This document shows, one piece after another, positions 9,172 to 57,151 of a DNA stretch of 60,980 nucleotides (positions are counted from its first letter, which is position 1; every line of letters starts with the position of its first letter). The notes under the pieces were generated by a model, which saw only the letters and a program-made list of their open reading frames with translations, ran no database searches and was not told the origin of the DNA. Source of the stretch: a virus (taxonomy: Duplodnaviria > Caudoviricetes); the IMG/VR virus record IMGVR_UViG_3300000317_000001, positions 1-60,980 of that record; one strand, 5' to 3'. A program made the position numbers and the translations under genes.

Positions 9172-9243
9172 TTATAGCCGAATTTAAATTTTCTAATTAC
9201 ATATTTATATGAAAACGTTATTTAAATTCGGCTATAACCATTA
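9172..9243. repeat. tripartite palindrome family, copy 1
   Basis: TTATAGCCGAATTTAAAT..CATATTTATATG..ATTTAAATTCGGCTATAA; perfect 18-bp arms. Confidence 0.92.
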
Positions 9244-9337
9244 TATAGAAGAAAATATTTTTTTATAAATATATGAAAAAACATTGATTTATATTGAAAA
9301 ATATTATATAATAAATATATAAAAAACTAAGGAGGAA

Positions 9338-9655
9338 ATGAAATTGGCATTTGTAAAGGACAAAATATTTTGGAAGGCTGTTAGAGATGTAGTAAAAATG
9401 GAAAGGCAAAATGGTATTCAAAAATGGGGTGATTTTGCAAGTTCTATGGAAAGATATGCTATTATGAAAGCAGAGGTTGAAGAAGCAGAAGATGAAATGA
9501 AAAATTTATTTGAAGAGTTGGAAAATTATTGGCAAAGTGTTAAAAACAATAAAAATGATTTTATGAAAGGAGACTTGGCAAAAATTGATGAAAAGTGTAC
9601 ATATTTGATTTCAGAAATTTTGCAAGTCATGGGATGTTGCTATGACAAGGAGTAG
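9338..9655 (+). CDS. putative MazG-like nucleotide pyrophosphohydrolase
   Basis: KWGDFASSMERYAIMKAEVEEA...SEILQV resembles the all-alpha EExxE...ExxQ pattern. Confidence 0.55.
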   Translation: MKLAFVKDKIFWKAVRDVVKMERQNGIQKWGDFASSMERYAIMKAEVEEAEDEMKNLFEELENYWQSVKNNKNDFMKGDLAKIDEKCTYLISEILQVMGCCYDKE

Positions 9656-9866
9656 GCAAATGTATGCAATAAAAAATAATTTGCAGAAGTATCGCGTATG
9701 GAAGAAATTAACTCAAACTGAACTAGCTAAGTGTGTTGAAATATCTATCAATCAACTAAGAAAAATTGAGCATGATGGGTATTATCCTAAGTATATGATA
9801 CGTCAAAAAATTTGTAACTATTTTGGAATATTGCAAACTCAAATGTTTTATAAGGGGGAATCTTAA
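9642..9866 (+). CDS. XRE/Cro-family HTH regulator
   Basis: NNLQKYR..LTQTELAK.V.IS...IE...P......I..YF. Confidence 0.88.
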   Translation: MTRSRQMYAIKNNLQKYRVWKKLTQTELAKCVEISINQLRKIEHDGYYPKYMIRQKICNYFGILQTQMFYKGES

Positions 9867-10564
9867 TGAAAGTATATTTAAGTGGAAGTACTCAGCAGGA
9901 TAATCAAGGAGTTTTAAACTACGGTACGGAAGAGTACAGAATGCAGCAACTTGCTGATAAAGTAAAGTTGTTTATGGAGCAAGGCAAAGGTAACTTTGAA
10001 ATATATAGAAATAATGGTAGCATGTCTTTGCAGCAAATAATAGAAGATTCAAATTCAAAAAGCCCAAATGTACATGTAGCCCTACATAGTAATGCTGGAG
10101 GAGGTCATGGAACAGAATGCTATTATAGCAATTATCCATCATTTTCGGCTTCATCTAAAAAATTAGCAGATTTAATTTATAATGCTGTTGCGACAATTAC
10201 TGCTCAAAGTGATAGGGGATGCTTGGCAGATACAGTTTTATACAGCCATGGACTTGCAGAAACTAGAGATACTACTGCAGTTGCGTGCTTAATCGAAATT
10301 ATGTTTCATGATAATGAAACTGATGTAAAAGATTATTTATCAAAAATAGACATAATAGCAAAAGCAATAGCAAAAGCTATTTATGCATATTTTGGAACTA
10401 CCTATGCGGAAGAGTCCACTAGGGAAACTGAAAGGGATATCGCAGTTAAAAGAATAAAAGAAATATCAAAATATAGCGATACTTGGATTAAAGAATTTGA
10501 CAAGCTAGCCCAAGAAGGATTAAACATTTGGGGCTTATTAAACAAATACAAAGGAGATAAATAG
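9866..10564 (+). CDS. endolysin, N-acetylmuramoyl-L-alanine amidase (amidase_3)
   Basis: VALHSNA..GTECYY, DRG, LIEIMFHDN motifs; short C-terminal domain. Confidence 0.88.
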   Translation: MKVYLSGSTQQDNQGVLNYGTEEYRMQQLADKVKLFMEQGKGNFEIYRNNGSMSLQQIIEDSNSKSPNVHVALHSNAGGGHGTECYYSNYPSFSASSKKLADLIYNAVATITAQSDRGCLADTVLYSHGLAETRDTTAVACLIEIMFHDNETDVKDYLSKIDIIAKAIAKAIYAYFGTTYAEESTRETERDIAVKRIKEISKYSDTWIKEFDKLAQEGLNIWGLLNKYKGDK

Positions 10565-11089
10565 ATGGCAGAGCAATTAGAACTTACAAAGTGTGTAGTA
10601 TGCAATAGCAAAGTAAAATCAATTACAGATGAAGCAAAAAATGTTAAAGCATATTTTTGCACTAGTGAAAAGTGCAAATATTTTAAAAACGCTTTAAAAA
10701 CAGTTTCCCTAGTGGATATTGACTCTATGATAGGGAATACAAAAGATGATGGCACAATACAAGAGTACGAAACTGGTGCTCATAAAAGTGTTCAAGAAGG
10801 GAAAGGAGCTTTTTATTTGATACCATATGAAGCTATGGAACGTTTAGCAAAAAGATTTGAAGAAGGTGCTGTTAAGTATGGTGCTAGGGATTTTGAAAAA
10901 GGTATTCCAGTTAGCGATTGTGTAAGTGCTGCTATGAGACATTTGATGAAATTTGCGTGTAATTACGATAAAGAAGATCATTTAGCAGCAGCATTATGGA
11001 ACTTAAGCGTGGTTGCTTTTTATGAAGCAAAGCATGTTGGCAATGATATTATATTAGATTTGCCAAAATATAAGGAGGAGTCTAAATGA
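10565..11089 (+). CDS. DUF5664-type dATP/dGTP diphosphohydrolase with N-terminal Zn ribbon
   Basis: ETGA..GKG.F.LIP..GAVKYG.RDFEKG..AMRHL..EDHLAAALWN. Confidence 0.8.
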   Translation: MAEQLELTKCVVCNSKVKSITDEAKNVKAYFCTSEKCKYFKNALKTVSLVDIDSMIGNTKDDGTIQEYETGAHKSVQEGKGAFYLIPYEAMERLAKRFEEGAVKYGARDFEKGIPVSDCVSAAMRHLMKFACNYDKEDHLAAALWNLSVVAFYEAKHVGNDIILDLPKYKEESK

Positions 11090-11868
11090 AATTAGCAAAT
11101 ATTGTTCCAGAAGCGCATTTAGAATTAAGTAAAAATATGCATATGGTATTAGCACATGAATTTATGACTAGGCCTCAATATGCGGAATATTATATAAAAA
11201 AATCTAGTGAAGGAGATGAAGTTATTTTAGACAATAGTGCTTATGAAAAGGGTTGCAGTATCAATGCGGCAACTCTAGCATTAATTGCAAAAGAGTTGAA
11301 ACCTACTCATTTGATATTACCTGATAAAAGATTCGATCAAAAAGCAACTGTTGCTTTAGTAAAAGATTTTCAAAAAGTTGATGAACTAGCTTCTTTAAAT
11401 TGTAAATTACTTGCAGTACCGCAAGGTAATGATTTAAAAAGTGTAGTTGCTTGTTATGAAGAATTAAGCAAATTACAATTTATAGATGGATTTGCTATTT
11501 ATGAAGAAATTGGGCAAGTTACAAAATTGGGTGATGGCAGTAGAGCAGATTTTTGTAGTGCTTTACAACATTGGGAATTAATACATAAAGACTTTTATTA
11601 TCACATGCTAGGATGTGAAGAAAATTTAAATAATACAAAGAGATTAGTAGAATTTCCTTGGATCAATAGTATTGATACTGCAAAAGCAGTAGTATATGGA
11701 TTAAATGATATGGATATTTTGGATTCAAAAAATTATGAAAAATACCCACATAGGCCAAAAGATTATTTTGACATAAAAGAAATAGCACCAATGTGTATTC
11801 AAAACATTAGAACTTTAGAAAAGTGGCTAAATAATTCAAATGAAGAGGAGTGGAAAACTAATGTGTAG
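11086..11868 (+). CDS. putative TGT/DpdA-like TIM-barrel deazaguanine transferase
   Basis: VILDNSAYE, ILPD, AVPQG, HMLG, SIDTA parallel the TGT-fold motifs (DS, D, xxQG, HxxG, D); directly upstream of Gat-QueC. Confidence 0.6.
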   Translation: MKLANIVPEAHLELSKNMHMVLAHEFMTRPQYAEYYIKKSSEGDEVILDNSAYEKGCSINAATLALIAKELKPTHLILPDKRFDQKATVALVKDFQKVDELASLNCKLLAVPQGNDLKSVVACYEELSKLQFIDGFAIYEEIGQVTKLGDGSRADFCSALQHWELIHKDFYYHMLGCEENLNNTKRLVEFPWINSIDTAKAVVYGLNDMDILDSKNYEKYPHRPKDYFDIKEIAPMCIQNIRTLEKWLNNSNEEEWKTNV

Positions 11869-13261
11869 TATATCAGGAATTTTAAATGGAAGTAGTGATA
11901 CTCCAAAACATTGGGAATTAATGAGTGAAATATTTAGAAATTTAATAGAAGTTGGTTCAAATAGAGGTAGAGATAGTGTTGGATTTTGTCAATTTAATGA
12001 CAAATGTGCAAGTGTACTTAGGTTCAAAACTATCAAAAATATTGATTTTGACATAGATGAAATGCATGTTATTATAAACAATAGAGCAGAAGCTACAACT
12101 GAGTACATTAAAGAAAAAACATTTGAGGATATTCAACCTTTTACTTCAAAAAATTGGAGAGTAGTTCACAATGGAACAATAAGTAATGATAAGAAAATAG
12201 TTGAAAAATATCATTTAAAACCAAAAACTAAAATAGATACTGCAGTAATTCCACTAATGCTAGAAGAAGTTTTCGGAAATGAGTTTCCTGTAAATTCAGT
12301 AATAGAGTTTTTGCAAGAAGAATTAGTAGGGTCGTTTGCACTAGCAATTGTACATAAGTTATATCCAGATCAAATATTGCTAATGTGCAACTATAAGCCA
12401 ATATACATAGGCTACTATCATCAATTAGATACTTGGGTATTTGCAACTCAACCAGAAGCTTTTAGTAGTGGAATTGCTACAATGCAACAGTGCAGTGTTC
12501 AAAAATTGCCTCCATACAGTAGTTGTTTACTAAAGCAAGGTTCACAACCCAAAGTTAAAAATTTGTTACCTAAAAAGAAAGTTAATGAAAAAAGAGCGAT
12601 AGTAATATGCAGTGGTGGGTTAGATAGCACAGTTGCAGCAACTATAGCAAGTCAAAACTACAAAGAAGTAACTTTATTGCACTTTTTATACAAATGCAAA
12701 GCCGAATCAAAAGAAAAAGAAGCCGTAGTAAAAATTGCAGAGTATTTACGATGCAATGTTAAATTTATAAAAACTGATATTTTTAAAGAAATATTATCAA
12801 GTAGCTTAACTGATGTAGATAAAGAAATTACTCAAGGAGAAATTGGTATTGAATATGCTCACGAATGGATTTACTCTAGAAACCTGATCATGCTGAGTAT
12901 TGCACTAGGCTATGCTGAAAAGAATAATTTTGATGTAATAATGCTAGGTAATAATTTAGAGGAAGAAAATAGTTATTCGGATAATTGTCAAGAATTTATA
13001 AGAAAATTTGGAGAGTTAATACCTAATAGCGTAAATTTAAACAAAAAAATTGAAATTGCAGAACCCGTAGGTAATTTAATGAAACATGAAATTGTAAAAT
13101 TAGGCTTAGAAATTAATGCACCTTTGCATTTAAGTTGGAGTTGCTATGAAGGGAAAGAAGTACGTTGTGGCACATGCGGTCCTTGTAATCTTAGGAAAAA
13201 AGCATTCGCAATGAATGATAGGTTAGATTTAGTTCCGTATTCAGATTCAAAAATAATTTAG
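11861..13261 (+). CDS. queC: Gat-QueC fusion (class II glutamine amidotransferase + 7-cyano-7-deazaguanine synthase)
   Basis: N-terminal MCSISG, RGRDS, HNGTI; C-terminal CSGGLDS, RN, K.EIV, SWSCY..CGTCGPC..R. Confidence 0.93.
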   Translation: MCSISGILNGSSDTPKHWELMSEIFRNLIEVGSNRGRDSVGFCQFNDKCASVLRFKTIKNIDFDIDEMHVIINNRAEATTEYIKEKTFEDIQPFTSKNWRVVHNGTISNDKKIVEKYHLKPKTKIDTAVIPLMLEEVFGNEFPVNSVIEFLQEELVGSFALAIVHKLYPDQILLMCNYKPIYIGYYHQLDTWVFATQPEAFSSGIATMQQCSVQKLPPYSSCLLKQGSQPKVKNLLPKKKVNEKRAIVICSGGLDSTVAATIASQNYKEVTLLHFLYKCKAESKEKEAVVKIAEYLRCNVKFIKTDIFKEILSSSLTDVDKEITQGEIGIEYAHEWIYSRNLIMLSIALGYAEKNNFDVIMLGNNLEEENSYSDNCQEFIRKFGELIPNSVNLNKKIEIAEPVGNLMKHEIVKLGLEINAPLHLSWSCYEGKEVRCGTCGPCNLRKKAFAMNDRLDLVPYSDSKII

Positions 13262-13272: not shown

Positions 13273-15894
13273 ATGATTTGTAACAAATGTAAAGAAACAG
13301 AAAAATGCCTTAAAATAGATTCAGAAATATGCCCAAAGTGTAAAGTAATGGTTGTTGCCGAAAAACCAACTGGATTTGAATGCATTAGTAAGACTAAATT
13401 TAAAGGATATCAATATAATTTTTTAATGCAAGTTATTCGGAAGGTGCAAAATGAGTTATCCCTAGCGGATAGCTCGATTTATGCAACATATGCTATAAAA
13501 GCGCCATTAACAGCATGGAGTGCAGTAAGAGCAAAAAAGTGTTCTGAAATATTATTTGAAGAAATTAAAGCAGTAAAACCAAAAGTAATAATTGCTTTAG
13601 GTGCATCTGTAGGCAGATTATTTACTGGAAAATCTCAAGATGTACCCCAACTTAGAAAAGAACCAGTATTCCTTAGAGATCTTAAATGTTGGATTGTACC
13701 TACGTATGCTCCAGGAAGCATAACGTATAATTTAAGCATATTAAAAGATTTAGAAAATGATATCAGAAAAGCATTTCAATTAACTCAAGCGAAATTTCCA
13801 CTAGGGAACAAGGTTGAAATCGGATTAGTAACATCTAAAAGTGTAAAAAGAAATAAAAAGATATTGGAGGCAATGTTGAAATGGAAGGGTAAAGATATAT
13901 CATTTGATATAGAAACTGAAGGATTAGATTATTGTCAACACCAAGTTTTAGCATTAGGATTTGCTTGGGATGAAAGATATAGCTATACAATACCTCAAAA
14001 TGTATTAGAAGACAAGGGTATTCAATGTTTGTTAGATCAATTTTTTCAAACTGAAAATATATTCATTGGTCAAAATGCGAAATTTGATGTTGGTTTCTTA
14101 AGATTTGATGCAGTATTTAAGAAAGTTGTAATACCACATGCAAGATATGATGAAGATACAATGTTAATGCATTACTGCCTTGATGAAAGAACTGGAACAC
14201 ATGGTTTAAAGAAATGGGCAATTGATTATTTTAACGCACCAGATTGGGAAAGTGATATTAAAAGATACCTTCCGAATAAAGAATCTTTATATAGTTTAAT
14301 ACCAGAAAATATCTTGCATAAATATTTGAAATTTGATGTACATTATACCCTACGAGGGTATCGTTTATTTAAAGAACTCATTAAATCAGAAGGTACTGAA
14401 ATGTGCTATAAAAATGTATTGCTTCCCGTATCAAAAGCATTTACTGAAATTGAACTTGAAGGTGTTATGCTTGATGTTGATGCACTTAAGCAAAAAATGG
14501 CAGAAGCAAAACCAGAAATGGCAAGATTGTCAAATGAACTTTTAGAAGAAGCAACTAAAGTTGGTTGGAGCCCAGAAAAATATGTTGAAGTTACTGGAGC
14601 AAAAGAAGTGCCAAAGTTCTTTAATGTTAAATCAAGCAAACAAATGCAATGGGTTGCATATGATCTATGTGATATGCCAAAGTGGAATATGGGCAGAGAT
14701 GGCTATAAAAAGAGTTGCTGCAAAGATGCAGTAGAAGTTTATAGATATAGGCATCCATTTTGGAAAAAACTACATGAGTATAAGCAAGTAGCAGATTTAT
14801 TTGGAATATATGTTAAGGGTATGTTAGAAGCCGTCGATGGTGATGGAAAAATAAGACCTGATTTTTACTTAACTGGTACAGTAACTGGACGTATAAGTTG
14901 CCATTCGCCAAATCTTCAAAATTTACCTAGAAAATCTTTTGTCAAAAATATGTTCATAGTACCAGAAGATTGCGTTTGTGTAAATGTTGACTATAAAACA
15001 CTAGAGGTTGTAGTTGCATCAATATTGTGTGGAGATGAAGTAATGCAACAACCATTTCTAGATGGGCAAGACTTTCACAACTTAAGTACAGAAGGTATTT
15101 TCAAAGATGATCTAGTTAACTTAAGAAACTGGACTTCCGCTAGGGAAACTGAGAAATTAATCGAGTATTGTAACAGACCAATAATGTCCGAAGTTCGAGA
15201 ATACATAGTAAATGATTATTTGCTCAAGAGTGATTTTGATGGTGCAATGGCTCAAATATTTGATTACTTAAGATTTTTAAATAAATTTGTGATTTTTGGT
15301 GTGCTTTACGGTAGAAAAGCAAGAAGTTTAGCAGAAGGAGAGTTAAATTGTAGCGTATTAGAAGCTCAAAACTATATTGATCAATTTTTTATAAAGTTTC
15401 CAAAATTTGCTATATGGGCAAAAAATCAACAAGAAATGGCAGTAACTCAAGGGTACGTACAAACGGCATTTGGTTTTAAGCGCAGATGGAGTTCAATATC
15501 ACAAGATGAAATTTATAGGATAGAAAACCAATCGATTAACACGCCTATACAAGGTACTGCAGCACAAATTACTTTGATGGCGTTAACAAAGTGCCATGAA
15601 GCGTTTAAAACAAATAAATATGGCAGAGTATTATTTACAGTACATGACTCAATTGTATTTGAAGTTAAAAAAGCATATTTAAATGCAAGTTTAGATTTAA
15701 TACACAACATAATGGCAAAAATGCCAAAAGAGTTGAATACAAAATTGCCTCTAGTAGCAGAAATTGAAATAGGCAAAAATTATGGGGAACACATATTAGT
15801 AAAAAGGTCCCCTAGTGGAATTTGGGTAAATGCAAAAGATAAAGATAAAGAGCAATTTGAAAATTTAATGCTTAAATATTTAACAAATTATTAA
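13273..15894 (+). CDS. family A DNA polymerase with N-terminal UDG-like and 3'-5' exonuclease domains
   Basis: FDIETEG, QNAKFD, TGRISCHSPNLQN, DYKTLE, K..FG..YG, NTPIQGTAA, TVHDS; EEIKAVKPKVIIALG UDG-family segment. Confidence 0.93.
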   Translation: MICNKCKETEKCLKIDSEICPKCKVMVVAEKPTGFECISKTKFKGYQYNFLMQVIRKVQNELSLADSSIYATYAIKAPLTAWSAVRAKKCSEILFEEIKAVKPKVIIALGASVGRLFTGKSQDVPQLRKEPVFLRDLKCWIVPTYAPGSITYNLSILKDLENDIRKAFQLTQAKFPLGNKVEIGLVTSKSVKRNKKILEAMLKWKGKDISFDIETEGLDYCQHQVLALGFAWDERYSYTIPQNVLEDKGIQCLLDQFFQTENIFIGQNAKFDVGFLRFDAVFKKVVIPHARYDEDTMLMHYCLDERTGTHGLKKWAIDYFNAPDWESDIKRYLPNKESLYSLIPENILHKYLKFDVHYTLRGYRLFKELIKSEGTEMCYKNVLLPVSKAFTEIELEGVMLDVDALKQKMAEAKPEMARLSNELLEEATKVGWSPEKYVEVTGAKEVPKFFNVKSSKQMQWVAYDLCDMPKWNMGRDGYKKSCCKDAVEVYRYRHPFWKKLHEYKQVADLFGIYVKGMLEAVDGDGKIRPDFYLTGTVTGRISCHSPNLQNLPRKSFVKNMFIVPEDCVCVNVDYKTLEVVVASILCGDEVMQQPFLDGQDFHNLSTEGIFKDDLVNLRNWTSARETEKLIEYCNRPIMSEVREYIVNDYLLKSDFDGAMAQIFDYLRFLNKFVIFGVLYGRKARSLAEGELNCSVLEAQNYIDQFFIKFPKFAIWAKNQQEMAVTQGYVQTAFGFKRRWSSISQDEIYRIENQSINTPIQGTAAQITLMALTKCHEAFKTNKYGRVLFTVHDSIVFEVKKAYLNASLDLIHNIMAKMPKELNTKLPLVAEIEIGKNYGEHILVKRSPSGIWVNAKDKDKEQFENLMLKYLTNY

Positions 15895-15971
15895 TGGATA
15901 TAGTCGATTTAAATTAAACGAATTTCATAATTTTATATGAAAACGTTATTTAAATTCGACTATAACCATTA
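15892..15971. repeat. tripartite palindrome family, copy 2
   Basis: TAATGGATATAGTCGATTTAAAT..TATATGAAAACG..ATTTAAATTCGACTATAACCATTA; overlaps the polymerase stop codon. Confidence 0.92.
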
Positions 15972-15993
15972 TATAGAAAGCGTATAAAACCAA

Positions 15994-16023
15994 AAATAAA
16001 TAACCCATATGGGTTATTTATTT
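15994..16023. terminator. bidirectional intrinsic terminator between convergent genes
   Basis: AAATAAATAACCCAT-ATGGGTTATTTATTT palindrome. Confidence 0.65.
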
Positions 16024-16978: not shown

Positions 16979-17033
16979 AATTAAAATAACCCCAAGTGGG
17001 TTATTTTTTTTTTGCAAATATAGTCATTATATA

Positions 17034-17104
17034 TAATGGATATAGCCCAATTAAAATAACCTAATTATATATTTATGTGAAATGGTAATTTTAAATCGAC
17101 TATA
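17034..17104. repeat. tripartite palindrome family, copy 3 (more degenerate)
   Basis: TAATGGATATAGCCCAATTAAAAT..TATATTTATGTG..ATTTTAAATCGACTATA. Confidence 0.85.
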
Positions 17105-17247
17105 CAAAAAAAAAATAGCAACTATTTATATTAAAATAATATTAAGATATTTTAATGCTATTTTAATATAAAAACACTTGATTTTTGTTTCATTTTATTA
17201 TATAATAATAATATAATAAATAAAATTAATAAATAGGAGGTAACAAA

Positions 17248-20634: not shown

Positions 20635-21435
20635 ATGAAAAAGAAAATTATTAGTTTTGTAACAGCAGTAAGTTTAGTAGGTCTATTAGGTTCAAGTGTG
20701 TTTGCAGAAGATACTACACCTAATGCAACACCAACAACTACTTTAGAAGCAACCGTAACACCAGAAGTAACGCCAACAGCAATAGTTACACCAGAAACAA
20801 CTGCTACTCCAGAAGTTACAGCAACAGTATCAAATACACCAACTGCTACTCCAGAAGTAACAAATAGTGCAACTGCTACTCCAGTAGCAACATCAACTGT
20901 AACAAACAATACTACAACAAATTATACTACAACAACAAATAATTATCACTACTATTATTCATATAGTAAAGTTGATAACCGTAACTACAGTACAAACATT
21001 ACAGTTAACAACCATAACATAAATTATGGAAAACAAATAATTGCACAAGGTGGAATTGCAACAGTAAATACAACTTTAATTAATGGTGGAACTTTCACAC
21101 AAAATATTAAAATTGCAGAAGGTAAAAATGTGATTCAGTTTAAAAAGAATGGACACAACTACAGAAGTGAGTTTTATGTATATGGTTCAGATCAGGAAAT
21201 TAAGCACGTAAGAACAAAAAATGTGTATTTGTTATCACAAAACACAAAAGGAACAGGAAATTCAAAAACAAATGTAGTTGGAACTAGTGTAGTAACATCA
21301 ACTTTGCCACAAAGTGAAGTTGTAACAACACTACCTACAACAGGAGAATCTTTTCCTACTGCTTCAGTTGCTGGAGGTATCTTAATAATGCTAGTTGGAT
21401 TAGGTTTTGTGTTTAAGAACAAAATCTTAAACTAA
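20635..21435 (+). CDS. cell-wall-anchored LPXTG protein with Thr/Pro-rich repeats
   Basis: Signal peptide ending VFA-E, TATPEVT repeats, LPTTG + hydrophobic helix + KNK tail; terminator at 21448-21485. Confidence 0.85.
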   Translation: MKKKIISFVTAVSLVGLLGSSVFAEDTTPNATPTTTLEATVTPEVTPTAIVTPETTATPEVTATVSNTPTATPEVTNSATATPVATSTVTNNTTTNYTTTTNNYHYYYSYSKVDNRNYSTNITVNNHNINYGKQIIAQGGIATVNTTLINGGTFTQNIKIAEGKNVIQFKKNGHNYRSEFYVYGSDQEIKHVRTKNVYLLSQNTKGTGNSKTNVVGTSVVTSTLPQSEVVTTLPTTGESFPTASVAGGILIMLVGLGFVFKNKILN

Positions 21436-21545
21436 AATTGGCAAACAAATATGTGAGTTTTAAATAACTCACATATTTTTTTTTTCGCTAAATCCGCTAG
21501 GGAACATGGAAGTTTTTATTTTTGAGTAATATACCAATAAATACT

Positions 21546-21639
21546 CAAAATAGTAATGGTTATAGCCGAATTAAAATATCTAAATTACATAAATATATGA
21601 AAACGTTTTTTATATTCGCCTATAACCATTATTATTTTG
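21546..21639. repeat. tripartite palindrome family, copy 4
   Basis: CAAAATAGTAATGGTTATAGCCGAAT..CATAAATATATG..ATTCGCCTATAACCATTATTATTTTG. Confidence 0.92.
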
Positions 21640-23701: not shown

Positions 23702-23708
23702 TGCTCTT

Positions 23709-23742
23709 AAATACGGCTTAAAATATGTTTTAAGCCGTATTT
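23709..23742. terminator. intrinsic terminator
   Basis: AAATACGGCTTAAA-loop-TTTAAGCCGTATTT followed by a T-rich run. Confidence 0.75.
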
Positions 23743-23924
23743 ATTTTGTGTTTTTAAATTCTTAGATTTCTAATTAAAATTTAATCGGAAAATTAAAATT
23801 TAAATTTGGTGGTTTTAAGTTACGTTTAAAACCCATTTATATGTAAATATATGTAAATATCCGTTCCCTATAACCCGTATAAATCGTATGTTTCTGCATG
23901 TTCATTTTGTAAAAAATAACCGTG

Positions 23925-24004: not shown

Positions 24005-24134
24005 ATAGGGCATATAAAAAAATTCCTATAACCTTACGTAATCGTAGGTTATAGGGTGCTCCATTTCCATTAAATTTTCCGTGTTTGATCGCTTTCCGCT
24101 AGGGAATCTTTTGTCTTTTTTGCGTCTTTTTTAT

Positions 24135-42911: not shown

Positions 42912-43184
42912 GAGAACTATCCGCTAAGGAACAAGTCCTTTCAAGTTCCCTAGCGGATAGTTCCCTTTTATTTTGAAAAACCATTGAAATTCATTGGAAA
43001 ATATTATATAATATAAATATAGAAAATGTTTTTGGGTAAGGTATTTAAGATCTATATTTGATTTTAATGTTTGTTGCTGGATTAGAAGGATATTGGTTGA
43101 AAGATCAGCCACAACCTTATGTTAATCCGGAACAAACATTTAAATGGCAGGAAAAAATATTGGGGAGTATTAAGGAGATTTAAA

Positions 43185-43463
43185 ATGATAAATTATTTGT
43201 CATATTTCGTAAAAAAAGATTTTGAAATAAATCAAATAAGAATGATTACAACTGATTATAGCTATAAAGAATTATCAAAATTTAAACTTTGGCAACTTGA
43301 ATCGATAAAATCATTGATACGTGTTGGATTTAAAAAAGATTATATAAATGAAAAAAGATTATATAATTTTGGAAAAGGTGCAATTAAATTTATTATAGAA
43401 CTTGAGATGCAAAATAAAAGAAAAAATGAGAAATCTCAAAAAAAAAATTACAAGGAGAAATGA
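43185..43463 (+). CDS. hypothetical protein (moron-like insert in the tail operon)
   Basis: Promoter at 42984; AAGGAG RBS before MINYLS. Confidence 0.5.
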   Translation: MINYLSYFVKKDFEINQIRMITTDYSYKELSKFKLWQLESIKSLIRVGFKKDYINEKRLYNFGKGAIKFIIELEMQNKRKNEKSQKKNYKEK

Positions 43464-43706
43464 ATGATGAAAAAATATGTTGGTACAAAATTAATACAGG
43501 CTAAACCTATGGCATACAAAGAATATTGCTTGCACAAGTATGGGAACTTTGAACCTAAAGGAGAACTTACAGAAATAAATGAATTTTCTGAAGGTTATTT
43601 AGTACAGTATGAAGGTGGATATCAATCATGGTCACCAAAAGGTGTATTTGAAAAAGCTTATGCAGAAGTAGATTTAGAAAAGTGGGAATTTGTCAATGTT
43701 AAGTAA
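43464..43706 (+). CDS. conserved phage protein (MKKYVGTK..GYLV.Y.GGY.SWSPK.VFE.AY family)
   Basis: Recognisable conserved phage motif; function unknown. Confidence 0.75.
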   Translation: MMKKYVGTKLIQAKPMAYKEYCLHKYGNFEPKGELTEINEFSEGYLVQYEGGYQSWSPKGVFEKAYAEVDLEKWEFVNVK

Positions 43707-43850
43707 ATGGGAAAGAGAAACATGTCCTTTTAATAGCATACAAAATTTTATTAACAACATTGGGAAACAGTCAAAAATTGACAGAATTCCAGTAATAAGT
43801 TTAGAACTTTATAATAAATTAAAGCAACTTGAAAAAGAGGAGGATTTAAA

Positions 43851-44297
43851 ATGACAAACGAAGATAAAGAAAAAATTTATTATTTAAACAAAGAAAGAGA
43901 AGAAAGAGACATTTTAATGAATAAGGGTGTTCCAGTTCCATTTGGTACGGATGTAGTAAATGTTAAGGCACTGGAGTGGAATGAATCAAATGCCTTTGAG
44001 GATGCAGTAGTAGCAGTAGCTAAGAAATTTAAAGAAGTAACTGGGACTGAGGTTGCAGGAACTGATGCTTTGAAAAAAGGTGTTAGTATTGATGAAATTT
44101 TAGAAACAATAGTTGGCATTATGCGAAATGATTTAGTTGAATTAGCGACGTTATCCACTAGGGGACTTGTTACTTTAAATTACATTCAGGAGAAGCATGC
44201 AACTAAAGCGGATGTAATTAAAGTTTTAGTTGAAGCATTCAAACTAAACTATTCGTACTTGGGAAACTTGCTAGCCCTTACCAAGGGATTGAAATAG
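43851..44297 (+). CDS. tail assembly chaperone
   Basis: Lies upstream of the tape measure gene; slippery G GGA AAC at 44261-44267. Confidence 0.8.
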   Translation: MTNEDKEKIYYLNKEREERDILMNKGVPVPFGTDVVNVKALEWNESNAFEDAVVAVAKKFKEVTGTEVAGTDALKKGVSIDEILETIVGIMRNDLVELATLSTRGLVTLNYIQEKHATKADVIKVLVEAFKLNYSYLGNLLALTKGLK

Positions 44298-44551
44298 AAG
44301 GGCAAGAACCATTTGGTTGGGGAGGAATGTTTGACTTGCTAATGTCGGAATACAATGTTTCCCTAGCGGATATCCAGCATTGGACGAAAGAACAAATGTT
44401 TCTGTTGAAGGATAAAATGGAACGTAGGTTAAAAGACAAACAAAAGTTTGAAGCAAGTCTACATGGTGCCAAAATGGAAGCAGAAGGATTAGATACAGAT
44501 GGTGCCATTCCAATAGAAGTTCTTATTGACAAAGGAATAGGTTTTATGTAA
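44261..44551 (+). CDS. tail assembly chaperone -1 frameshift extension
   Basis: The -1 frame from 44261 is open and in frame with ORF 44327-44551. Confidence 0.8.
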   Translation, partial: GKLASPYQGIEIEGQEPFGWGGMFDLLMSEYNVSLADIQHWTKEQMFLLKDKMERRLKDKQKFEASLHGAKMEAEGLDTDGAIPIEVLIDKGIGFM

Positions 44552-44559
44552 CAAAATAT

Positions 44560-44638
44560 TAATAGGTATAGTCGAATATAAATTGGGGTTTCATATAAAT
44601 ATGTAAAACGAATATTTATATTCGACTATATCCATTAT
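44560..44638. repeat. tripartite palindrome family, copy 7
   Basis: TATAGTCGAATATAAAT..CATATAAATATG..ATTTATATTCGACTATA; directly before the tape measure RBS. Confidence 0.92.
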
Positions 44639-44656
44639 ATAGAAAGGAGGTAGTTT

Positions 44657-47392
44657 ATGGCAACAGTTGAAGAACTCCTATTAAACATAAATACTGAAGG
44701 TGGACCTAGTGCATCAAATGCAATTAGAAATCTAGAGAGCGCAATTAGAAGCCTTATTAACCCAATTCAATTACTTGAAAATGCTCTTAGGCAATCTACA
44801 GATTATTTTAACAGATTTCAGAATGAAATTAATCAAAGCGATAGTGGCTTTAACAGATTTGAAAGTGAAACAAGGCAATCCGCAGAAACTATAAGGCTTC
44901 TTGAAACACAACTTAGAGAACTTACTTTGCAGTTTAATAATTTGCAAGGTGAGCAAAGGCAATCCGATACGACTACTGCTCAATTAGAAGCACAAATAAG
45001 GGAATTGACTGAGCAACTGCAACGTCTTGAAAGAGAAACTAGGCAAACAGATGAAGAAATGAGACGTATGGATAGGTCTACTAGAGAAGCTGAACAAGGA
45101 TTTGGTTTGTTACATCGTATGGGTGCAAATTTAAAGCAAACACTTATGAGTATTGTAAGTACTGCTGGAGGAATGCTTGTATATGGTGCAATTACAAATA
45201 TTTTTTATCAATTAGCAGATGCATTTAAGCAAGGAATCACAGATGGCATTAAGTATAATATAGAGATGGAAAATAACATGGCGTCATTTACTACAATGCT
45301 TGGCAGTGCAGATAAAGCTAAAAAGCTAATGGATCAAATAACAAAAATGGCTGCAGCAACACCATTTGAAACAAAAGATTTAACTTCTGCAACTACTATG
45401 CTAATGAGTTATGGGTTTACGCAAGAAAAAGTAATACCTATAATGAGCAAATTGGGAGATGTATCTCTAGGCAATAATGAGAAATTTCAATCATTATCAA
45501 GAACTATGGGTCAAATTAATGCACTTGGAAAATTACAAGGCGGAGATTTAAATCAACTTATTGGTCAAGGGTGGAATCCATTGAATGAAATCACCAAAAA
45601 AACTGGTGAGACTATGGAACAAGTTAAAGACAGAATGTCAAAAGGGAAAGTAACCTATAAAGAGGTTGAAGATGCATTAACTAGTGTGACTAGTGCAGGA
45701 GGTATGTTTTACAAATCAATGGATACCGCATCTAAAACTTTTGAAGGAACTTTAAGTACTTTAAAAGATAAATTTAGCATATTTTTAGGGCAAGCTACTA
45801 AACCATTATTTAATTATTTGAAAGATGTTGGAATACCCGCAATATCTGATTTGATTGATAGCTTTTCAAACATGGGTAAAATACTTAAAGATAAAATTCC
45901 TCCAATAATAAATACTTTTAAAACTAAATGGGTTGAATTATTTGGCACAGATGATGATAAAAAATCATTTAAAGAGTCAATAGATGATTTTAACAAAAAA
46001 TTACCGGATGCTTTAGATAAAGTAAATAAAAAAGTTGAAGGTGTTTTTAATAAATTAATTCAACTTAGAGATACTTGGAGATCAATTACATCAGGTAACA
46101 TGGGTACTTTAATTGATTTATTTCCTGCATCTTGGCAAGGCAACATTGCACTAGGTATTCAAAAATTTAATGAAGTTAGAAGTGCTATTAGTGGTATTAT
46201 TAGCTTTTTACAAACTTCTTTTGCACCAGTAATAGAAGTGTTTAAAAATACATTCAAGAATATGGATTGGGGACCTGCACAAGAAGCAGTTTCAAAATTA
46301 GGAAATACTATAATAAATGTGTTGATTCCAGCAATTAAGCCTTTAGCAGAAGTAGTTGGAGGTGTTCTTGTAGGTGCTTTTGCACTATTATTAGGTCACA
46401 TTAATGGAGTACTTACAATTTTACCATCAATTATTTCAACAGTTGCAAGTATATGGAATACTATCTTAGGTTTTGTAACAATAATTGTAGGTGTATTTAC
46501 TAACAATGAAAAAGCTATTAAAGATGGTTGGGATTCAATGTGGAGTGGCATTGTAGGTACTGTTACTGGAATGGTAGCAATAATACAGGGGTATATAAAA
46601 GGCTTCAATGATGCTATTGTAGGTTTCTTCAAAGGACTTTCTAATACATTAGTTGGGCATTCAATTGTACCAGAGATGTGCAATGCCATAACAGGTGTAT
46701 TTCAAGGTTTGTGGAATTCCATAACTGGAATTGTTAGTGGAATTTATAATACAGTTGTTGGGTGGTTTAATAACGCAAGAAATACTGCAGTATCCATATG
46801 GCAAGGTCTTGTAAATAATGTAGGTTCAATCGTGAGTGGGTTGTGGAGTACAGTTAGCAATGCTTTCCAAAATGTAGTAACTGCAATCAGTAATAAAGCG
46901 AGTGCTGCATATGATGCTGCAAGTAGAGTAGCAACTAGCATCAAAAATGCAATATCTGACATGGCAACTAGTATGTATAATGCAGGAGCAAATCTTGTAC
47001 AGAGTGTAATTAATGGAATAGGCAGCATGATTGGTAAAGTAAAAAATGCTGCAGGAAATGTAGCTCAAGCAATTAAAAACTTCTTTCCAAGTAGTCCAGC
47101 AAAAGAAGGTCCATTGCAAAGCATACCTAAGTGGATGCCAACTATGATTGGTACTATGACAGATGATTTGTATGCTGGGGTAGATAAAATTAGAAGAGCG
47201 TCTAGTAATTTAGCTACAAACATTAAAAGTGAACTTTATTTACAACCTGCAGCAGTATCTAGCAATAGTTATTCTAGGGTAGATCAAAATGTCTCAATTG
47301 TAGTTAATGCAGCACATTTAGCAGCAGATCAAGTTGGAGAGCAATTAGTTAATACATTATTGAGATACGGAATTAAAGTTAATAAGGGGTAA
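44657..47392 (+). CDS. tape measure protein
   Basis: FTTMLGSA..A..TPF..LGD..GQI...GKL.G; Trp/Phe-periodic repeats; PSSPAKEGPL. Confidence 0.92.
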   Translation: MATVEELLLNINTEGGPSASNAIRNLESAIRSLINPIQLLENALRQSTDYFNRFQNEINQSDSGFNRFESETRQSAETIRLLETQLRELTLQFNNLQGEQRQSDTTTAQLEAQIRELTEQLQRLERETRQTDEEMRRMDRSTREAEQGFGLLHRMGANLKQTLMSIVSTAGGMLVYGAITNIFYQLADAFKQGITDGIKYNIEMENNMASFTTMLGSADKAKKLMDQITKMAAATPFETKDLTSATTMLMSYGFTQEKVIPIMSKLGDVSLGNNEKFQSLSRTMGQINALGKLQGGDLNQLIGQGWNPLNEITKKTGETMEQVKDRMSKGKVTYKEVEDALTSVTSAGGMFYKSMDTASKTFEGTLSTLKDKFSIFLGQATKPLFNYLKDVGIPAISDLIDSFSNMGKILKDKIPPIINTFKTKWVELFGTDDDKKSFKESIDDFNKKLPDALDKVNKKVEGVFNKLIQLRDTWRSITSGNMGTLIDLFPASWQGNIALGIQKFNEVRSAISGIISFLQTSFAPVIEVFKNTFKNMDWGPAQEAVSKLGNTIINVLIPAIKPLAEVVGGVLVGAFALLLGHINGVLTILPSIISTVASIWNTILGFVTIIVGVFTNNEKAIKDGWDSMWSGIVGTVTGMVAIIQGYIKGFNDAIVGFFKGLSNTLVGHSIVPEMCNAITGVFQGLWNSITGIVSGIYNTVVGWFNNARNTAVSIWQGLVNNVGSIVSGLWSTVSNAFQNVVTAISNKASAAYDAASRVATSIKNAISDMATSMYNAGANLVQSVINGIGSMIGKVKNAAGNVAQAIKNFFPSSPAKEGPLQSIPKWMPTMIGTMTDDLYAGVDKIRRASSNLATNIKSELYLQPAAVSSNSYSRVDQNVSIVVNAAHLAADQVGEQLVNTLLRYGIKVNKG

Positions 47393-47431
47393 AAACTTTT
47401 ACAGTTTCCCTAGCGGAAAGAGGTGATTTAA

Positions 47432-48868
47432 ATGGCAGTAAGGCACTTGTATATTGATGGAACAAATATAACTGGAACTGAAATTTATATGAGTAAAGAT
47501 TGGTCAATTGAAGAAAAGATCAATAAAAGATCCACAATGAGTTGCACCATTGCAAGAGCAAATGGCGCAACTATATCTTGTGGAAAAGAAGTGATGTTAT
47601 ACGATGGCACTACATATATTTGGGGTGGAGTTATTATGGATATTAGTGATTTTGAAAGGCCAGATGGTACAGTAGAATACTCCCTAACTATTGATGATTT
47701 TTGTGCGTTGGTAGAAAGATTAATGATAACTAAAGTTTATGAAAATCAAACAATAAATGCTATTTTAACCGATTTTTTAATAACATTTGCAACACTTGGT
47801 ATTACAGAAGGGTATATTGAGCTCGATTTACCAAAAATTTCAAGGAATACATGTAATTACCAGTATGGGCATAATGCTTTAGATCATTTGAAAGATTTTG
47901 GCAATTATATTTGGAACATTGATTTAAATAAAAAGTTTTATTTTTATAGCATTGGGTATTTAGTAAGCACAACAACTCTAACAGATTACTTAGGGTTTAA
48001 AAGAAGTAGAAGTTTAAAAAATTACAGAAATACAGAATATGTTAGGGGCAAAAATAGGCAAACCGTTTGGCAATCTTCTGAAAGACCAACTCCAACGCCT
48101 GATGGAAATATTCAAGAGTTTTTTACACATTATCCAATAGGAAAAGCACCCGTAATAATGGTAAGTATTTCTGGAGGTACTTATGCCCTTAAAACAATAG
48201 GGATTAAAGGTATTGATACTGGAATGGATTGGTACTGGACTTATGGATCAACTCAAGTATCTCAAGATTCTAGTGGAACTAAATTAACTGCAGCAGATAA
48301 TATAAGAATAAGTTACTATGGTTTGGTACCTTTGTTTGTAATGACTTTGGATTCTACAGAGGTTTCCGCTAGGGGAACTTATTCTCATTATGTCCGCAAC
48401 GAGAAATTAGAGAGTTCAATAGACGCATTGAATTATGCAATTAAGCTTTTAGAAAAATACTCAAATGAAGCAGAGTCAATTTCATTTTCTAAAACAACAA
48501 AAACTTATGAAGCAGGAATGCAGTTTCCAGTTGTGAAAAGTGCATTAGGAATAAATAGCACATTCTTATGTGAAGGTGTTACTTGGAAACCAATGGGTCC
48601 AACTGCAATTTCTTATGAATATAAAGCAATTGATGGTGCTGCATTAGGTGGATGGGAAGAGTTTTTTAAGAACTTGGCAAAACCTGAAAGCATTGAAACT
48701 ACGGATAATGAAATAATTGTATATTTGAAGAGTTGGAGTGAAGGAATTGCACATGCGGGATCAACTGCAATTACAGTTTTAACTCCATTGTATCCTAGTA
48801 CAGGTTTATATCCTAGTGCAAGTTTGTATCCTGGAACAATTATAGCAACTGCAACAATAGTAGATTAG
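47432..48868 (+). CDS. minor tail / baseplate hub protein
   Basis: Follows the tape measure gene; beta-rich. Confidence 0.7.
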   Translation: MAVRHLYIDGTNITGTEIYMSKDWSIEEKINKRSTMSCTIARANGATISCGKEVMLYDGTTYIWGGVIMDISDFERPDGTVEYSLTIDDFCALVERLMITKVYENQTINAILTDFLITFATLGITEGYIELDLPKISRNTCNYQYGHNALDHLKDFGNYIWNIDLNKKFYFYSIGYLVSTTTLTDYLGFKRSRSLKNYRNTEYVRGKNRQTVWQSSERPTPTPDGNIQEFFTHYPIGKAPVIMVSISGGTYALKTIGIKGIDTGMDWYWTYGSTQVSQDSSGTKLTAADNIRISYYGLVPLFVMTLDSTEVSARGTYSHYVRNEKLESSIDALNYAIKLLEKYSNEAESISFSKTTKTYEAGMQFPVVKSALGINSTFLCEGVTWKPMGPTAISYEYKAIDGAALGGWEEFFKNLAKPESIETTDNEIIVYLKSWSEGIAHAGSTAITVLTPLYPSTGLYPSASLYPGTIIATATIVD

Positions 48869-52593: not shown

Positions 52594-52798
52594 TAGAATA
52601 TGTAAAATTTTACAAGATAATAATTTTTATCCTGATTGCAATATGCACATTTGGGTGCGTGAAAATGACATTTATATTACGGATGAGTTTTTGTGCGATT
52701 GGGAAGGATCTGAAAGTGAATTTCAAGAATTTTTACACTGTTTAATTAATCAAAGAAAGAATAAGATGGAAAATCCACTAGGGAAACTAAGTGATTAA
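52583..52798 (+). CDS. hypothetical protein
   Basis: GAGGAGG RBS. Confidence 0.55.
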   Translation: MTVDRICKILQDNNFYPDCNMHIWVRENDIYITDEFLCDWEGSESEFQEFLHCLINQRKNKMENPLGKLSD

Positions 52799-52834
52799 AT
52801 CCCACAAATACCCAATAAAACAACTTAGATATTC

Positions 52835-52917
52835 TGGATATAGTAGAATTAAAATACTTGGTTTTCATATTTATGTGAAATAGAAATTTAAATTCGGCTA
52901 TATCCATTAATATTTTG
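52835..52917. repeat. tripartite palindrome family, copy 8
   Basis: TGGATATAGTAGAATTAAAAT..CATATTTATGTG..ATTTAAATTCGGCTATATCCATTAATATTTTG. Confidence 0.9.
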
Positions 52918-55541: not shown

Positions 55542-55631
55542 ACAAATGGGATAAATGTATGTGTGCAATAGCAATTATTATAGTTATATGGTGTTGGGTT
55601 GATATTATTAGAATGATTATGGGAGGTTAAA

Positions 55632-56255
55632 ATGCTTAAGAAAATTTTTGAATGGTTACATGTTGATGAAGAACTTGTATTAAGATGGACTCCAGAAGGT
55701 TTAAGTGTTCGATTATATGAAAACATTTGTGGTCAACAGTATTGTGTTTCTCATATAATATCACCTTCTGAAAGGTTAGCGTTTGATGATATAATGTGTG
55801 AATGCTTACTTGTTAAAATGAGACGAGAAATGCAAGTTGTAAAAGATCAATGCTTAAAACCAGACGTACTAGAAAAACGTAAAAATAGATTTAAAAATCA
55901 TATCCAAGGTCAGTTTTAAGCAGAAATCCGCTAGGGAATCAAAAAATTAAAATTCCATGTTCCCTAGTGGATTTTGTGTAGAGGAGGAATATTTATGAAA
56001 CGACTAAATGCACAAGGTTATAAAAGAGTAAATGAAATTGCATTAAAGTACAGAATGTGTGTAGTGGAAATTACTGATATGGGTGAATATAGTCATTGGA
56101 GGCAAAATTTTTGGACCGGATATCAATTTATGGATATTTGTCAAAAAGATGCAAATTATATTTTTAAACTGGATGTTGCATTTGAATATTTTGATTTAGA
56201 AGATGAAACTTTCAAATTAGAAGAAAAGTGTAATTGTATTGATTGCAGAAAATAA
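55632..56255 (+). CDS. two hypothetical proteins (55632-55919; ~55995-56255)
   Basis: GGAGG RBSs; ORF track. Confidence 0.55.
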
Positions 56256-56279
56256 AACAAATTTAAAGGAGAATGAAAA

Positions 56280-56864
56280 ATGAATGAATTAACAATTTTT
56301 AACTTTGAGGAAAATGAAATTAGAACGGGTGTAAAAGATGGGGAAATATGTTTTTGCCATCTAGATTGTTGCAAAGCAATTAATTTACAAAATGCATCTC
56401 AAGCGTTACAACGTTTAAATAACGATAACATATATTATATATATATATATAGTATCGATAATTTAGGAAGATCTCATGAAATGGCATTTATTAGTAAATC
56501 AAATTTTTACAAATTAATGATTCAATCTAGAAAACCAGAAGCAGAAGCATTAGCAGATTGGGCTACTGAAGTTGTATTTCCAAGTATTGAAAAATTTGGA
56601 ATGTACCTGACACTTGAAAAAGCAAAGGAAGAACTTGAACTTAAAAGAAAACTTGCTGTACAAATTTTAAAAAGTGAAGGGTCTATTTATCCAAGAATAA
56701 ATAGCATTTGGATACCAAAAGAAGGGCAAGAGGTGCATGGGGAAATGTTTGTGCTTTATGACACAATTAAAACTGCAAAAGATTATGCACTATTTAGAAT
56801 TGATGAGTTAGAAAAATTTATCAAATTTGTTGGAGAAAAAGAAGCAAAAATTATGAAAAGATAA
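56280..56864 (+). CDS. BRO-N domain protein
   Basis: FNFEENEIRT..FC..D.C..FISKSNFYKL..SRKPEA...DW..EVV.PSI.K.G.Y. Confidence 0.88.
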   Translation: MNELTIFNFEENEIRTGVKDGEICFCHLDCCKAINLQNASQALQRLNNDNIYYIYIYSIDNLGRSHEMAFISKSNFYKLMIQSRKPEAEALADWATEVVFPSIEKFGMYLTLEKAKEELELKRKLAVQILKSEGSIYPRINSIWIPKEGQEVHGEMFVLYDTIKTAKDYALFRIDELEKFIKFVGEKEAKIMKR

Positions 56865-57068
56865 TCAAAATATTAAAATTTTAGGTACCCATATATTTTT
56901 AAAATATATGGGTATTTGGTTGAAAATTCCGGATTAAACGGTTTTATATATTTAAAATTAAATAATATAAGGGTTGGTATTTTTTAATGAATATACCGTT
57001 TTATTTTGGTAGCATCATTCAAAAATTCCGCTAGGGAACATTTTAGGTAAAAACGCAAATAAATAGTG

Positions 57069-57151
57069 CAAAATATTAATGGATATAGGCGAATATAAAT
57101 TGCCAAATTTCATATTTATATGAAAACGAAATTTATATTCGACTATATCCA
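57069..57151. repeat. tripartite palindrome family, copy 9
   Basis: CAAAATATTAATGGATATAGGCGAATATAAAT..CATATTTATATG..ATTTATATTCGACTATATCCA. Confidence 0.92.

Follow-up and report, generated by a model that had tools for sequence, protein, structure and literature searches.

A lineage-specific family of long palindromic repeats, possibly transcript hairpins, at the module borders of a 60,980-bp phage genome

The stretch analysed here, IMG/VR record IMGVR_UViG_3300000317_000001 (the window), is the complete genome, 60,980 bp long, of an uncultured phage, and its two termini are identical over 79 bases. It carries nine copies (c1 to c9) of a long tripartite palindrome that are the subject of this study. 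Genome G+C content is 32%, and the + strand carries nearly all genes, with strong Shine-Dalgarno sequences. Tandem transcription units are delimited by canonical intrinsic terminators and by sigma-A promoters, of which there are about 19, nearly identical to one another (TTGATT-17-TATAAT). The promoters belong to a family, (C/T)ATTGATTT-N-TATAATATAA, with conserved flanks and members from 2590 to 60887 (e.g., 9284–9312, 29487–29515, and 42984–43012), and the same type occurs in L132, a metagenome contig described below. Protein annotation covered 59 of about 98 open reading frames (ORFs), the remainder being mostly shorter than 100 aa. Coordinates of the repeat copies and of the other features are collected in Table 1.

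Searching the window with the 17-nt arm pattern at up to three mismatches gave 21 matches against 2.4 expected, a number reached in 0 of 100 shuffles. Nine inverted pairs accounted for 18 of them, and the other three were lone three-mismatch matches. A profile search of the whole window returned exactly nine copies, with the next match at E = 5.5. An earlier reading made from the letters alone (the sequence-only reading) had listed nine palindromes, and these are the same nine, with no tenth. From arm start to arm end there are 63 nt in eight pairs and 65 nt in c2, and these positions bear out the CG-to-CG distance reported earlier: it is 50 bp everywhere except in c2, where it is 52 bp. The size first given, ~75 bp, was too small: because conservation extends past TATAG and CTATA, from ~16 nt left of the former to ~12 nt right of the latter (extensions CAAAATAKTAATGG on the left and CCATTATATAGA on the right), the unit is ~93 nt.

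Within this unit, an outer stem of 24–33 bp is followed by a free 10-nt left linker, a CATA-TTTA-TATG centre, an 8-nt AAAACG-like right linker, and the second arm. The conserved centre CATATTTATATG and the variable linkers around it are as originally described. Counting the flanks, each conserved arm runs uninterrupted for ~30 bp. All 20 half-sites agree at TATAG, CGA, and further arm bases, and the centre is kept, while the linkers are randomised; in c7 the centre is shifted by −2/+2 with total arm spacing preserved. Since conservation is uneven, with arms and centre kept and linkers free, the repeat is under selection. Spacing and arm conservation thus uphold the earlier view of a real element of constrained geometry, and the arm bases that never change suggest a partner with sequence specificity.

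The copies also differ from one another in patches. A symmetric flank that is A-rich on the left and T-rich on the right occurs in c4 and c8 only, so that a T-tract is missing from 7/9 copies, and the in-operon copies have a purine-rich flank, TATAGAAR, instead. c1 and c2 have right halves that agree at 98% over 47 nt, c4 and c5 share 26 identical nucleotides on the left, and c1 and c4 have a palindrome-spacer-promoter composite in common. Three copies are incomplete: c1 is without the left flank, c3 and c5 are without the right flank, and c3 scarcely folds.

Table 1 Palindromic repeat copies and other features of the window. Arms are given as outer start/outer end; folds are RNA folds in kcal/mol with z against shuffles.
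Feature	Position	Strand	Arms	Fold; z	Description
c1	9163–9252	+	9173/9236	−21.1; −4.6	Arms 9173–9189 and 9220–9236 perfectly paired; left flank extension absent; after gene ending 9084 and a 12-mer inverted pair; −35 of sigma-A promoter at 9284 is 47 bp on
c2	15884–15980	+	15899/15964	−28.6; −7.7	Sole 52-bp-spaced copy; PolA stop codon 15892–15894 within left flank; between that stop and bidirectional terminator 15994–16023
c3	17030–17108	+	17041/17104	z −1.5	Most degenerate; three arm mismatches, no right flank; downstream of terminator 16983–17007, 73 bp ahead of promoter 17178
c4	21546–21634	+	21561/21624	−29.0; −7.7	Longest stem, ~34 bp including the CAAAATAGTAATGG / CCATTATTATTTTG extension; downstream of terminator 21447–21478, 51 bp ahead of promoter 21676
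c5	23923–24018	+	23940/24003	z −2.9	Right flank replaced; 50 nt downstream resemble the L132 copy; downstream of terminator 23708–23743; faces 3' end of two minus-strand RHH-like genes, 24135–24616
c6	36227–36322	+	36243/36306	−26.1; −5.4	Head operon; left flank overlaps minor-head/head-morphogenesis stop; protease gene start 36380; no promoter or terminator nearby
c7	44552–44645	.	44567/44630	−28.0; −6.9	Tail operon, between tail chaperone region and tape measure gene; interior inverted, flanks keep + pattern; ends 3 nt ahead of tape measure Shine-Dalgarno (ATG 44657)
c8	52825–52910	+	52839/52902	−23.9; −4.1	Stem then T-rich tail; 37 nt past stop at 52798; promoter 52974 is 71 bp on
c9	57067–57163	+	57084/57147	−28.7; −5.2	Best family-profile match; downstream of Bro-N gene 56280–56864 and terminator-like hairpins 56886–56918 and 56975–57000 (by eye; not scan-listed); then promoter 57488
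12-mer TCCRCTAGGGAA	57027–57038	−			Upstream of c9
12-mers upstream of copies	9103–9114 (c1); 21493–21504 (c4); 36155–36166 (c6); 52774–52785 (c8); also c9				Same orientation, 46–77 bp upstream of TATAG
Other 12-mer examples	36345–36356; 55927–55938/55960–55971				
FolE, QueD, QueE, GATase-QueC fusion	6132–7767 and 11840–13261				7-deazaguanine synthesis gene set
260-aa ORF	11086–11868				Beside the 7-deazaguanine genes; no family match
Antisense ORFs, 59 and 32 aa	16030–16358	−			Own consensus promoter 16434–16406; finish at bidirectional terminator 15994–16023
266-aa protein	20635–21435				Threonine/proline-rich; 30–42-nt DNA repeats; LPXTG cell-wall anchor motif
Four small RHH (Arc/CopG-like)-resembling proteins	24135–26191	divergent			Around a ~1-kb stretch of 25% G+C with direct repeats 24660–24743 and 24778–24861
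Further annotated genes					PD-(D/E)XK nuclease, Sak4-like annealase, SSB, primase-helicase, UDG-PolA fusion, RNase H, SNF2 helicase
Terminase and head genes					TerL, Mu-type portal, head-morphogenesis protein, protease, scaffold, major head protein
Other genes					Endolysin, LPXTG-anchored protein, two Bro-N proteins, tail genes, tape measure protein, amidoligase

The folded form consists of the outer stem, an asymmetric internal loop (variable on the 5' side, AAAACG-like on the 3' side), and a small apical hairpin, CAUA-UUUA-UAUG. Minimum free energy structures contain 22–34-bp stems in 8/9 copies, and RNA folds reach z ≤ −4 against shuffles in seven of the nine, c5 and c3 being the others. 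Folded as single-stranded DNA, 7/9 window copies and the L132 copy also have z ≤ −4. The outer helix comprises 24 pairs, of which eight never vary, and 84.6% of its cells are paired. Over the whole structure, standard pairs make up 86.4% of 280 pair cells, compared with 29–45% when the partner is slid. The arms also passed a check for co-variation: 14 cells show double changes against 7.0 ± 2.2 in shuffles (1/500 reach this number), six pairs have changes on both sides, and the co-variation score is 0.167 versus 0.114 in shuffles (6/500). The sole difference between the right halves of c1 and c2 (G/A) compensates a C/T difference in the left arm, as read from the sequences by eye. Co-variation beyond that of shuffles shows that a copy's two arms are linked to each other, whether by pairing or by correction of one arm from the other. 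The sense strand has 14 G.U pairs compared with five A.C cells, which is suggestive only (one-sided binomial ~0.03 by hand arithmetic).

Leave-one-out scoring favoured the + orientation for 8/9 window copies and for L132, with margins of 2.5–25 bits that fall below 4 bits for c3 and c8. The exception, c7, scored 57.9 bits inverted (−) against 45.0 in + orientation, and its strands are equal in the plain profile search. The sequence-only reading was correct that the asymmetric parts occur in both orientations, but the inverted state is rare, being found in c7 only (13 bits).

Transcription units end at 7/9 copies, and the earlier placement of copies at module borders and also inside the structural operon, ahead of the protease (c6) and tape measure (c7) genes, was accurate. 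Judged by position, c2, c6, and c7 are certainly transcribed, c2 within the 3' untranslated region of PolA, whose stop codon precedes it and whose terminator follows it. c1 and c8 are likely transcribed, because no terminator separates gene from copy. Upstream of c3, c4, and c5 the scans list intrinsic terminators, and upstream of c9 are the hairpins identified by eye. Five copies (c1, c4, c8, c3, and c9, respectively) are upstream of a sigma-A −35 element, at distances of 47, 51, 71, 73, and 340 bp, and the other four are not. None of the palindromes was listed as a whole by the terminator scans, which picked out just a small hairpin inside c5 (23943–23964). We also considered a sporulation-sigma or sigma-A promoter within the arms and rejected it, as no acceptable −35/−10 pair was found by eye and the scans gave weak 9-of-12 minus-strand matches overlapping some copies.

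A second motif accompanies the palindromes. The 12-mer TTCCCTAGYGGA occurs at 51 sites with at most one mismatch, against 0.15 expected, 28 on the + and 23 on the − strand. Of the 51 sites, 16 are intergenic; the 35 within genes use two reading frames in each orientation. Inverted pairs of 12-mers bracket some intergenic regions, that of c6 among them, and in L132 a relative of the 12-mer lies ~58 bp upstream of TATAG. The 12-mer could be a stoperator- or KorB-type protein site, or a modification or nicking site; it may resemble parS, Noc, KorB, and Mnt sites.

Outside the window the repeat is rare. The whole window had no Rfam match at gathering thresholds, and relaxing the thresholds gave only sub-threshold generic hairpin (microRNA-type) matches at c9 and none over c2 or c3. 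Among the 50,697 phage records of INPHARED, megablast found no match to 36000–48000 and blastn with c9 only chance 23–34-nt matches (E ~0.9). In IMG/VR the exact arm was present at 82 loci with one chance match each, and the two-arm core at 29 loci, none resembling the repeat; a search with the promoter pattern returned at least 118 stretches. The two-arm pattern had nine matches in 185,579 species genomes (one per species), all by chance, in a collection from which the true host may be absent. We accordingly found neither an Rfam family nor a transposable element of the miniature inverted-repeat type (MITE) or repetitive extragenic palindrome (REP) of a host in these collections that would account for the repeat. 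In metagenome contigs the same pattern had 16 matches of which two, L132 and L134, were real, and a profile search of 265 collected loci (2.2 Mb) recovered the repeat only in the window's own loci and in these two contigs.

L134 (1,001 bp) is 100% identical to window positions 57037–57751 and so includes c9. Its first 286 nt are an unrelated G+C-rich sequence, and the join reflects either an assembly chimera or, within ORF 57551–58081, a mosaic junction. L132 (2,987 bp) has one diverged copy with 51-bp arm spacing. Upstream of it are two copies of a perfectly palindromic 14-mer related to the window 12-mer, and downstream is a very AT-rich spacer (780–930) and then a sigma-A promoter of the window's type. 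None of the 11 ORFs of L132 had a detectable window homologue (best tblastn E = 0.024), so the repeat is conserved where genes are not. Since L134 and L132 are the only real carriers beyond the window, we regard the repeat as an element of a small phage lineage and not as a host repeat.

More distant relatives lack it. A search with the window protease found three relative loci at ~50% identity, all without the repeat, and searches with PolA and with an L132 ORF found none. A hairpin ahead of the protease in these three loci was rejected as support, as it was present in only one of three and modest. One of the three (L275:14090–14355) has two unrelated 66–68-nt palindromes 200 bp apart in a 700-bp intergenic region, with an identical 34-nt core, outer arms that are wholly different yet fully compensated, and partial direct copies nearby. 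This pair could be an origin or regulatory hairpins.

We tentatively favour a role for the repeat as a hairpin in the transcript, where a 22–34-bp double-stranded RNA (dsRNA) helix would serve RNase III-type processing or as a decay barrier at module borders. Transcribed copies would fold into such a helix, a predicted substrate for host RNase III and barrier to exonucleases, and the helices would cut or punctuate polycistronic mRNAs where portal and minor head genes meet protease, scaffold, and capsid genes, where chaperones meet the tape measure gene, and at the 3' end of PolA. Copies behind terminators would act on read-through transcripts. We rank an RNA-level role first because the positions of c2, c6, and c7 guarantee a dsRNA helix in essential transcripts, and because of the known behaviour of RNase III such a helix would be cut or at least block exonucleases. 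The repeat has the helix of at least 20 bp (about two turns) expected of RNase III sites, and the location of c6 and c7 inside operons, without a nearby promoter or terminator, also counts for action in the transcript. A precedent in a Bacillus phage is given by PMC4838370, according to which SP82 phage RNA contains targets cleaved by B. subtilis RNase III. The repeat, its fold, the co-variation of its arms, its positions, and the lack of known relatives are observations; that each copy is transcribed and cleaved, and that expression is affected, is inferred.

Several observations weigh against this role. The uncompensated arm mismatches noted in the sequence-only reading do exist, 13.6% of the 280 pair cells being unpaired, although the arms nevertheless co-vary beyond shuffles. 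That co-variation could itself stem from template-switch correction of quasi-palindromes without selection. Sense RNA is not significantly more stable than antisense RNA (mean difference −2.1 kcal/mol, Wilcoxon p = 0.375, 5/10 more stable), and the interior flip of c7 means that the asymmetric loop is not fixed in one polarity. Transcription of c3, c4, c5, and c9 would depend entirely on read-through, yet c4 and c9 rank with the best-preserved hairpins. RNase III requires no specific sequence, and the arm bases are nonetheless invariant. Finally, of the three ~50% relatives one has a modest hairpin ahead of the protease (z −2.6), and the other two score −0.6 and −0.4 there.

Alternatively, the repeat may be a docking site in duplex DNA or an extruded cruciform for a sequence-specific protein, acting as a boundary, roadblock, or organiser upstream of promoters. 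We consider this somewhat unlikely overall. Candidate binders would be the ribbon-helix-helix (RHH)-like proteins (24135–24616 and 25732–26191), the Bro-N proteins (22991–23701 and 56280–56864), or a host protein; the candidates encoded by the phage come from annotation. Kept arms and centre with free linkers, an arm spacing held at 50 bp in 8/9 copies, and a shifted centre in c7 that leaves the total unchanged are all features of such a site, for which an interior flip of the c7 type would be neutral if the site is symmetric. The DNA between terminator and promoter that contains c3, c4, and c5 is probably untranscribed, c9 is behind its by-eye hairpins, five copies precede a sigma-A −35 by 47–340 bp, and the 12-mer stands 46–77 bp upstream of 5/9 copies and also in L132. 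However, a dimer reading two half-sites does not require the arms to co-vary, a continuous arm of ~30 bp sets the repeat apart from usual operators, whose contacts are short and helically phased, promoter distances vary, and there is no promoter that c6 or c7 could regulate. Linkers that are not complementary would also be expected to impede branch migration of a cruciform. The sequence-only reading had preferred a DNA site to an RNA hairpin, and this preference could be neither upheld nor overturned: it is favoured by the copies behind terminators and the invariant arm bases, and disfavoured by the co-varying arms, an arm length exceeding that of usual half-sites, and the unavoidable transcription of c2, c6, and c7.

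The mosaic structure of the copies and L132 speak for another view, which we think unlikely, that the repeat is a self-propagating or recombination-spread regulatory cassette similar to the PeSLs of T4-type phages or to Correia elements and MITEs, marking module exchange points and having little function per copy. Spread would be through the phage's own homologous recombination, for which a Sak4-like annealase, SSB, and PD-(D/E)XK nuclease are encoded. The shared halves of c1/c2 and c4/c5, the truncated or decayed copies c1, c3, and c5, and the c1/c4 composite would all be products of such exchange, and L132 has palindrome and promoter together amid genes without detectable homology to the window. 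PeSLs are described in PMC4122927 as composite terminator/promoter motifs and exchange points between unrelated sequences. Yet no target-site duplication is visible at the flanks on inspection, and the 185,579 species genomes and the IMG/VR pattern searches contained no copies. Among the 59 scanned ORFs there is no transposase or recombinase, as the sequence-only reading had noted, nor an integrase, HUH enzyme, phage RNA polymerase, or RNase III. Uneven selection within the element favours function over drift.

The palindrome and its upstream 12-mer together might form a docking site for a phage protein (an RHH or Bro-N candidate) that recognises the folded form and divides the genome into transcription or recombination domains, an idea likewise to be treated with doubt. 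Recognition of a folded form would be comparable to that of attC by integrases and of REPs by RAYT enzymes. Such a site would belong to a three-element grammar of the lineage, made of the 51-copy 12-mer, nine palindromes, and ~19 sigma-A promoters. The readings considered in this study are not mutually exclusive. Correia elements combine mobility, RNase III binding, and a central protein site.

We consider it quite improbable that the repeat is a hairpin in single-stranded DNA, or a cruciform, used in replication or recombination, whether as multiple origins, priming signals, or resolvase-cut starts of recombination-dependent replication. Its single-stranded DNA folds would suit this function, AT-rich tracts follow some copies (780–930 in L132; 24.6–25.5 kb after c5, G+C 0.25), and the protease relative described above has two unrelated palindromes with compensated arms in one intergenic region. 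But cumulative GC skew climbs monotonically along the whole genome with no sign of several origins, which leaves the earlier suggestion of multiple origins unsupported. Nine sites, two of them within late operons, are unlike known phage origins, and the scanned ORFs include no resolvase, tyrosine recombinase, or HUH enzyme. The least probable alternative is a non-canonical terminator or insulator working on both strands, which the location of 7/9 copies at unit ends and the resemblance of the c4 and c8 flanks to bidirectional terminators would suit, but canonical terminators already stand beside c2, c3, c4, and c5, most copies have no T-tract, the scans list only the small c5 hairpin, and c6 and c7 precede essential late genes.

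The remaining gene content bears on the host and on the biology of the phage. The closest cultured TerL proteins, at ~41% identity, are those of Weizmannia phage Youna2 and Bacillus phages, and the phage encodes an XepA/YomS-like domain and an LPXTG motif; together these features point to a Gram-positive, Bacillus-like host. Because the QueD/QueE/FolE/GATase-QueC set is encoded, the phage DNA is probably modified, and the 260-aa ORF beside these genes may be a candidate transglycosylase. The 266-aa LPXTG protein looks like a moron, a phage-carried protein of the host surface. Minus-strand genes such as the two antisense ORFs that end downstream of PolA are rare in this genome. The low-G+C stretch flanked by the RHH-like genes could be a regulatory switch or an origin. 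Nine soil or wetland metagenome runs from 2012–2019 contain at least half of the sampled words from 36000–45900, so the phage recurs in such samples; four of the nine may be the source of the phage record. No RNA run was listed as carrying these words, which has no bearing on expression.

Phage cis-elements set gene dosage and permit module swapping, and to our knowledge few punctuation elements of this kind are known outside T7, T4, and the mycobacteriophages. Here a long structured phage repeat is selected for both sequence and pairing, stands ahead of the capsid and tape measure blocks, and is present in a related phage (L132) despite unrelated neighbouring genes. As an RNase III site or decay barrier, it would be a test case for post-transcriptional dosage control in phages of Firmicutes and a portable part for mRNA processing. 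Should it instead bind a protein as folded DNA, it would represent a new type of genome organiser in phages, and if palindrome and 12-mer form one docking site, a phage-borne structured-DNA site system without a known enzyme family. In each case, repeat, 12-mer, and promoters provide a sequence signature for locating this phage lineage in metagenomes.

RNase III sites are among the closest known systems. T7 has ten of them, and in T7 and SP82 the sites of one phage are similar in sequence. Like the T7 R-sites and those of SP82 early mRNA, the repeat consists of several similar intercistronic hairpins in co-oriented operons, each with a long helix and an internal loop. It differs in its longer (24–33 bp), AT-rich stems, in an arm sequence conserved beyond the need of RNase III, in the copies behind terminators (c3, c4, c5, c9), and in the one inverted interior, and its cleavage is a prediction. 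REPs and bacterial interspersed mosaic elements are G+C-rich palindromes of 20–40 nt, present in hundreds of copies per bacterial genome and associated with a RAYT transposase. The repeat does not belong with them, being ~93 nt long, AT-rich, and limited to nine copies in a phage with no HUH enzyme in the scanned ORFs. Nor does it have the G+C-rich stem and following T-tract of an intrinsic terminator, T-rich tails being confined to c4 and c8.

Stoperators of Cluster A mycobacteriophages are 13–14-bp asymmetric duplex sites for the repressor, present in many intergenic copies. The repeat resembles them as one site in many intergenic copies that might act as roadblocks, but it is a 93-nt palindrome with co-varying arms, and the 12-mer of this phage, with its 51 copies, is closer to them. 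The attC sites of integrons and Vibrio cholerae repeats are imperfect palindromes 3' of gene cassettes, recognised in folded single-stranded form. They share with the repeat a variable middle between conserved outer boxes, a constrained geometry, and a mostly uniform orientation; the units beside the repeat have promoters of their own, and no integron integrase or tyrosine recombinase is among the scanned ORFs. A cluster of Spo0A 0A-boxes of the phi29 type was also considered and rejected. The 0A-box consensus is TGTCGAA, usually as two boxes 3 bp apart (PMC2731898). The window contains 0 consensus boxes against 2.8 expected, and the arms, which read AGYCGAA, match at best 6/7 positions and are inverted 50 bp apart.

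According to PMC2649163, Correia elements (Correia repeat enclosed elements, CREE) of Neisseria are mobile, bind RNase III and are cleaved or protected, have a central IHF site, and can generate promoters. The repeat shares with CREE and MITEs long terminal inverted repeats (arms of ~30 nt including flanks) around a conserved core, the same logic of arms plus centre, and an intergenic, co-transcribed position. It is unlike them in its unrelated sequence, its nine copies confined to phage, the lack of a transposase source, and its absence from the species genomes, and by inspection the flanks of ten copies share no direct repeat outside the arms. The PeSLs, promoter/stem-loop cassettes of T4-type phages (PMC2839356 and PMC4122927), are also short regulatory repeats that border small variable genes, have a stem-loop near a host-type promoter, and are shared by phages with unrelated flanking genes, as in L132 and the window. 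A possible exchange point of this type is seen here in one case, that of L132, which has palindrome and promoter in common with the window but 0/11 ORFs. The palindrome differs in lying 47–340 bp from the promoter and apart from the real terminators, so that it forms no compact composite motif, in having four copies without a promoter, in its tripartite ~93-nt form, in its presence also within late operons, and in phage type and Gram-positive host. The structured repeat family is lineage-specific, matching no described family in the collections searched, and it belongs among the phage intergenic regulatory hairpin repeats, a kind already known.

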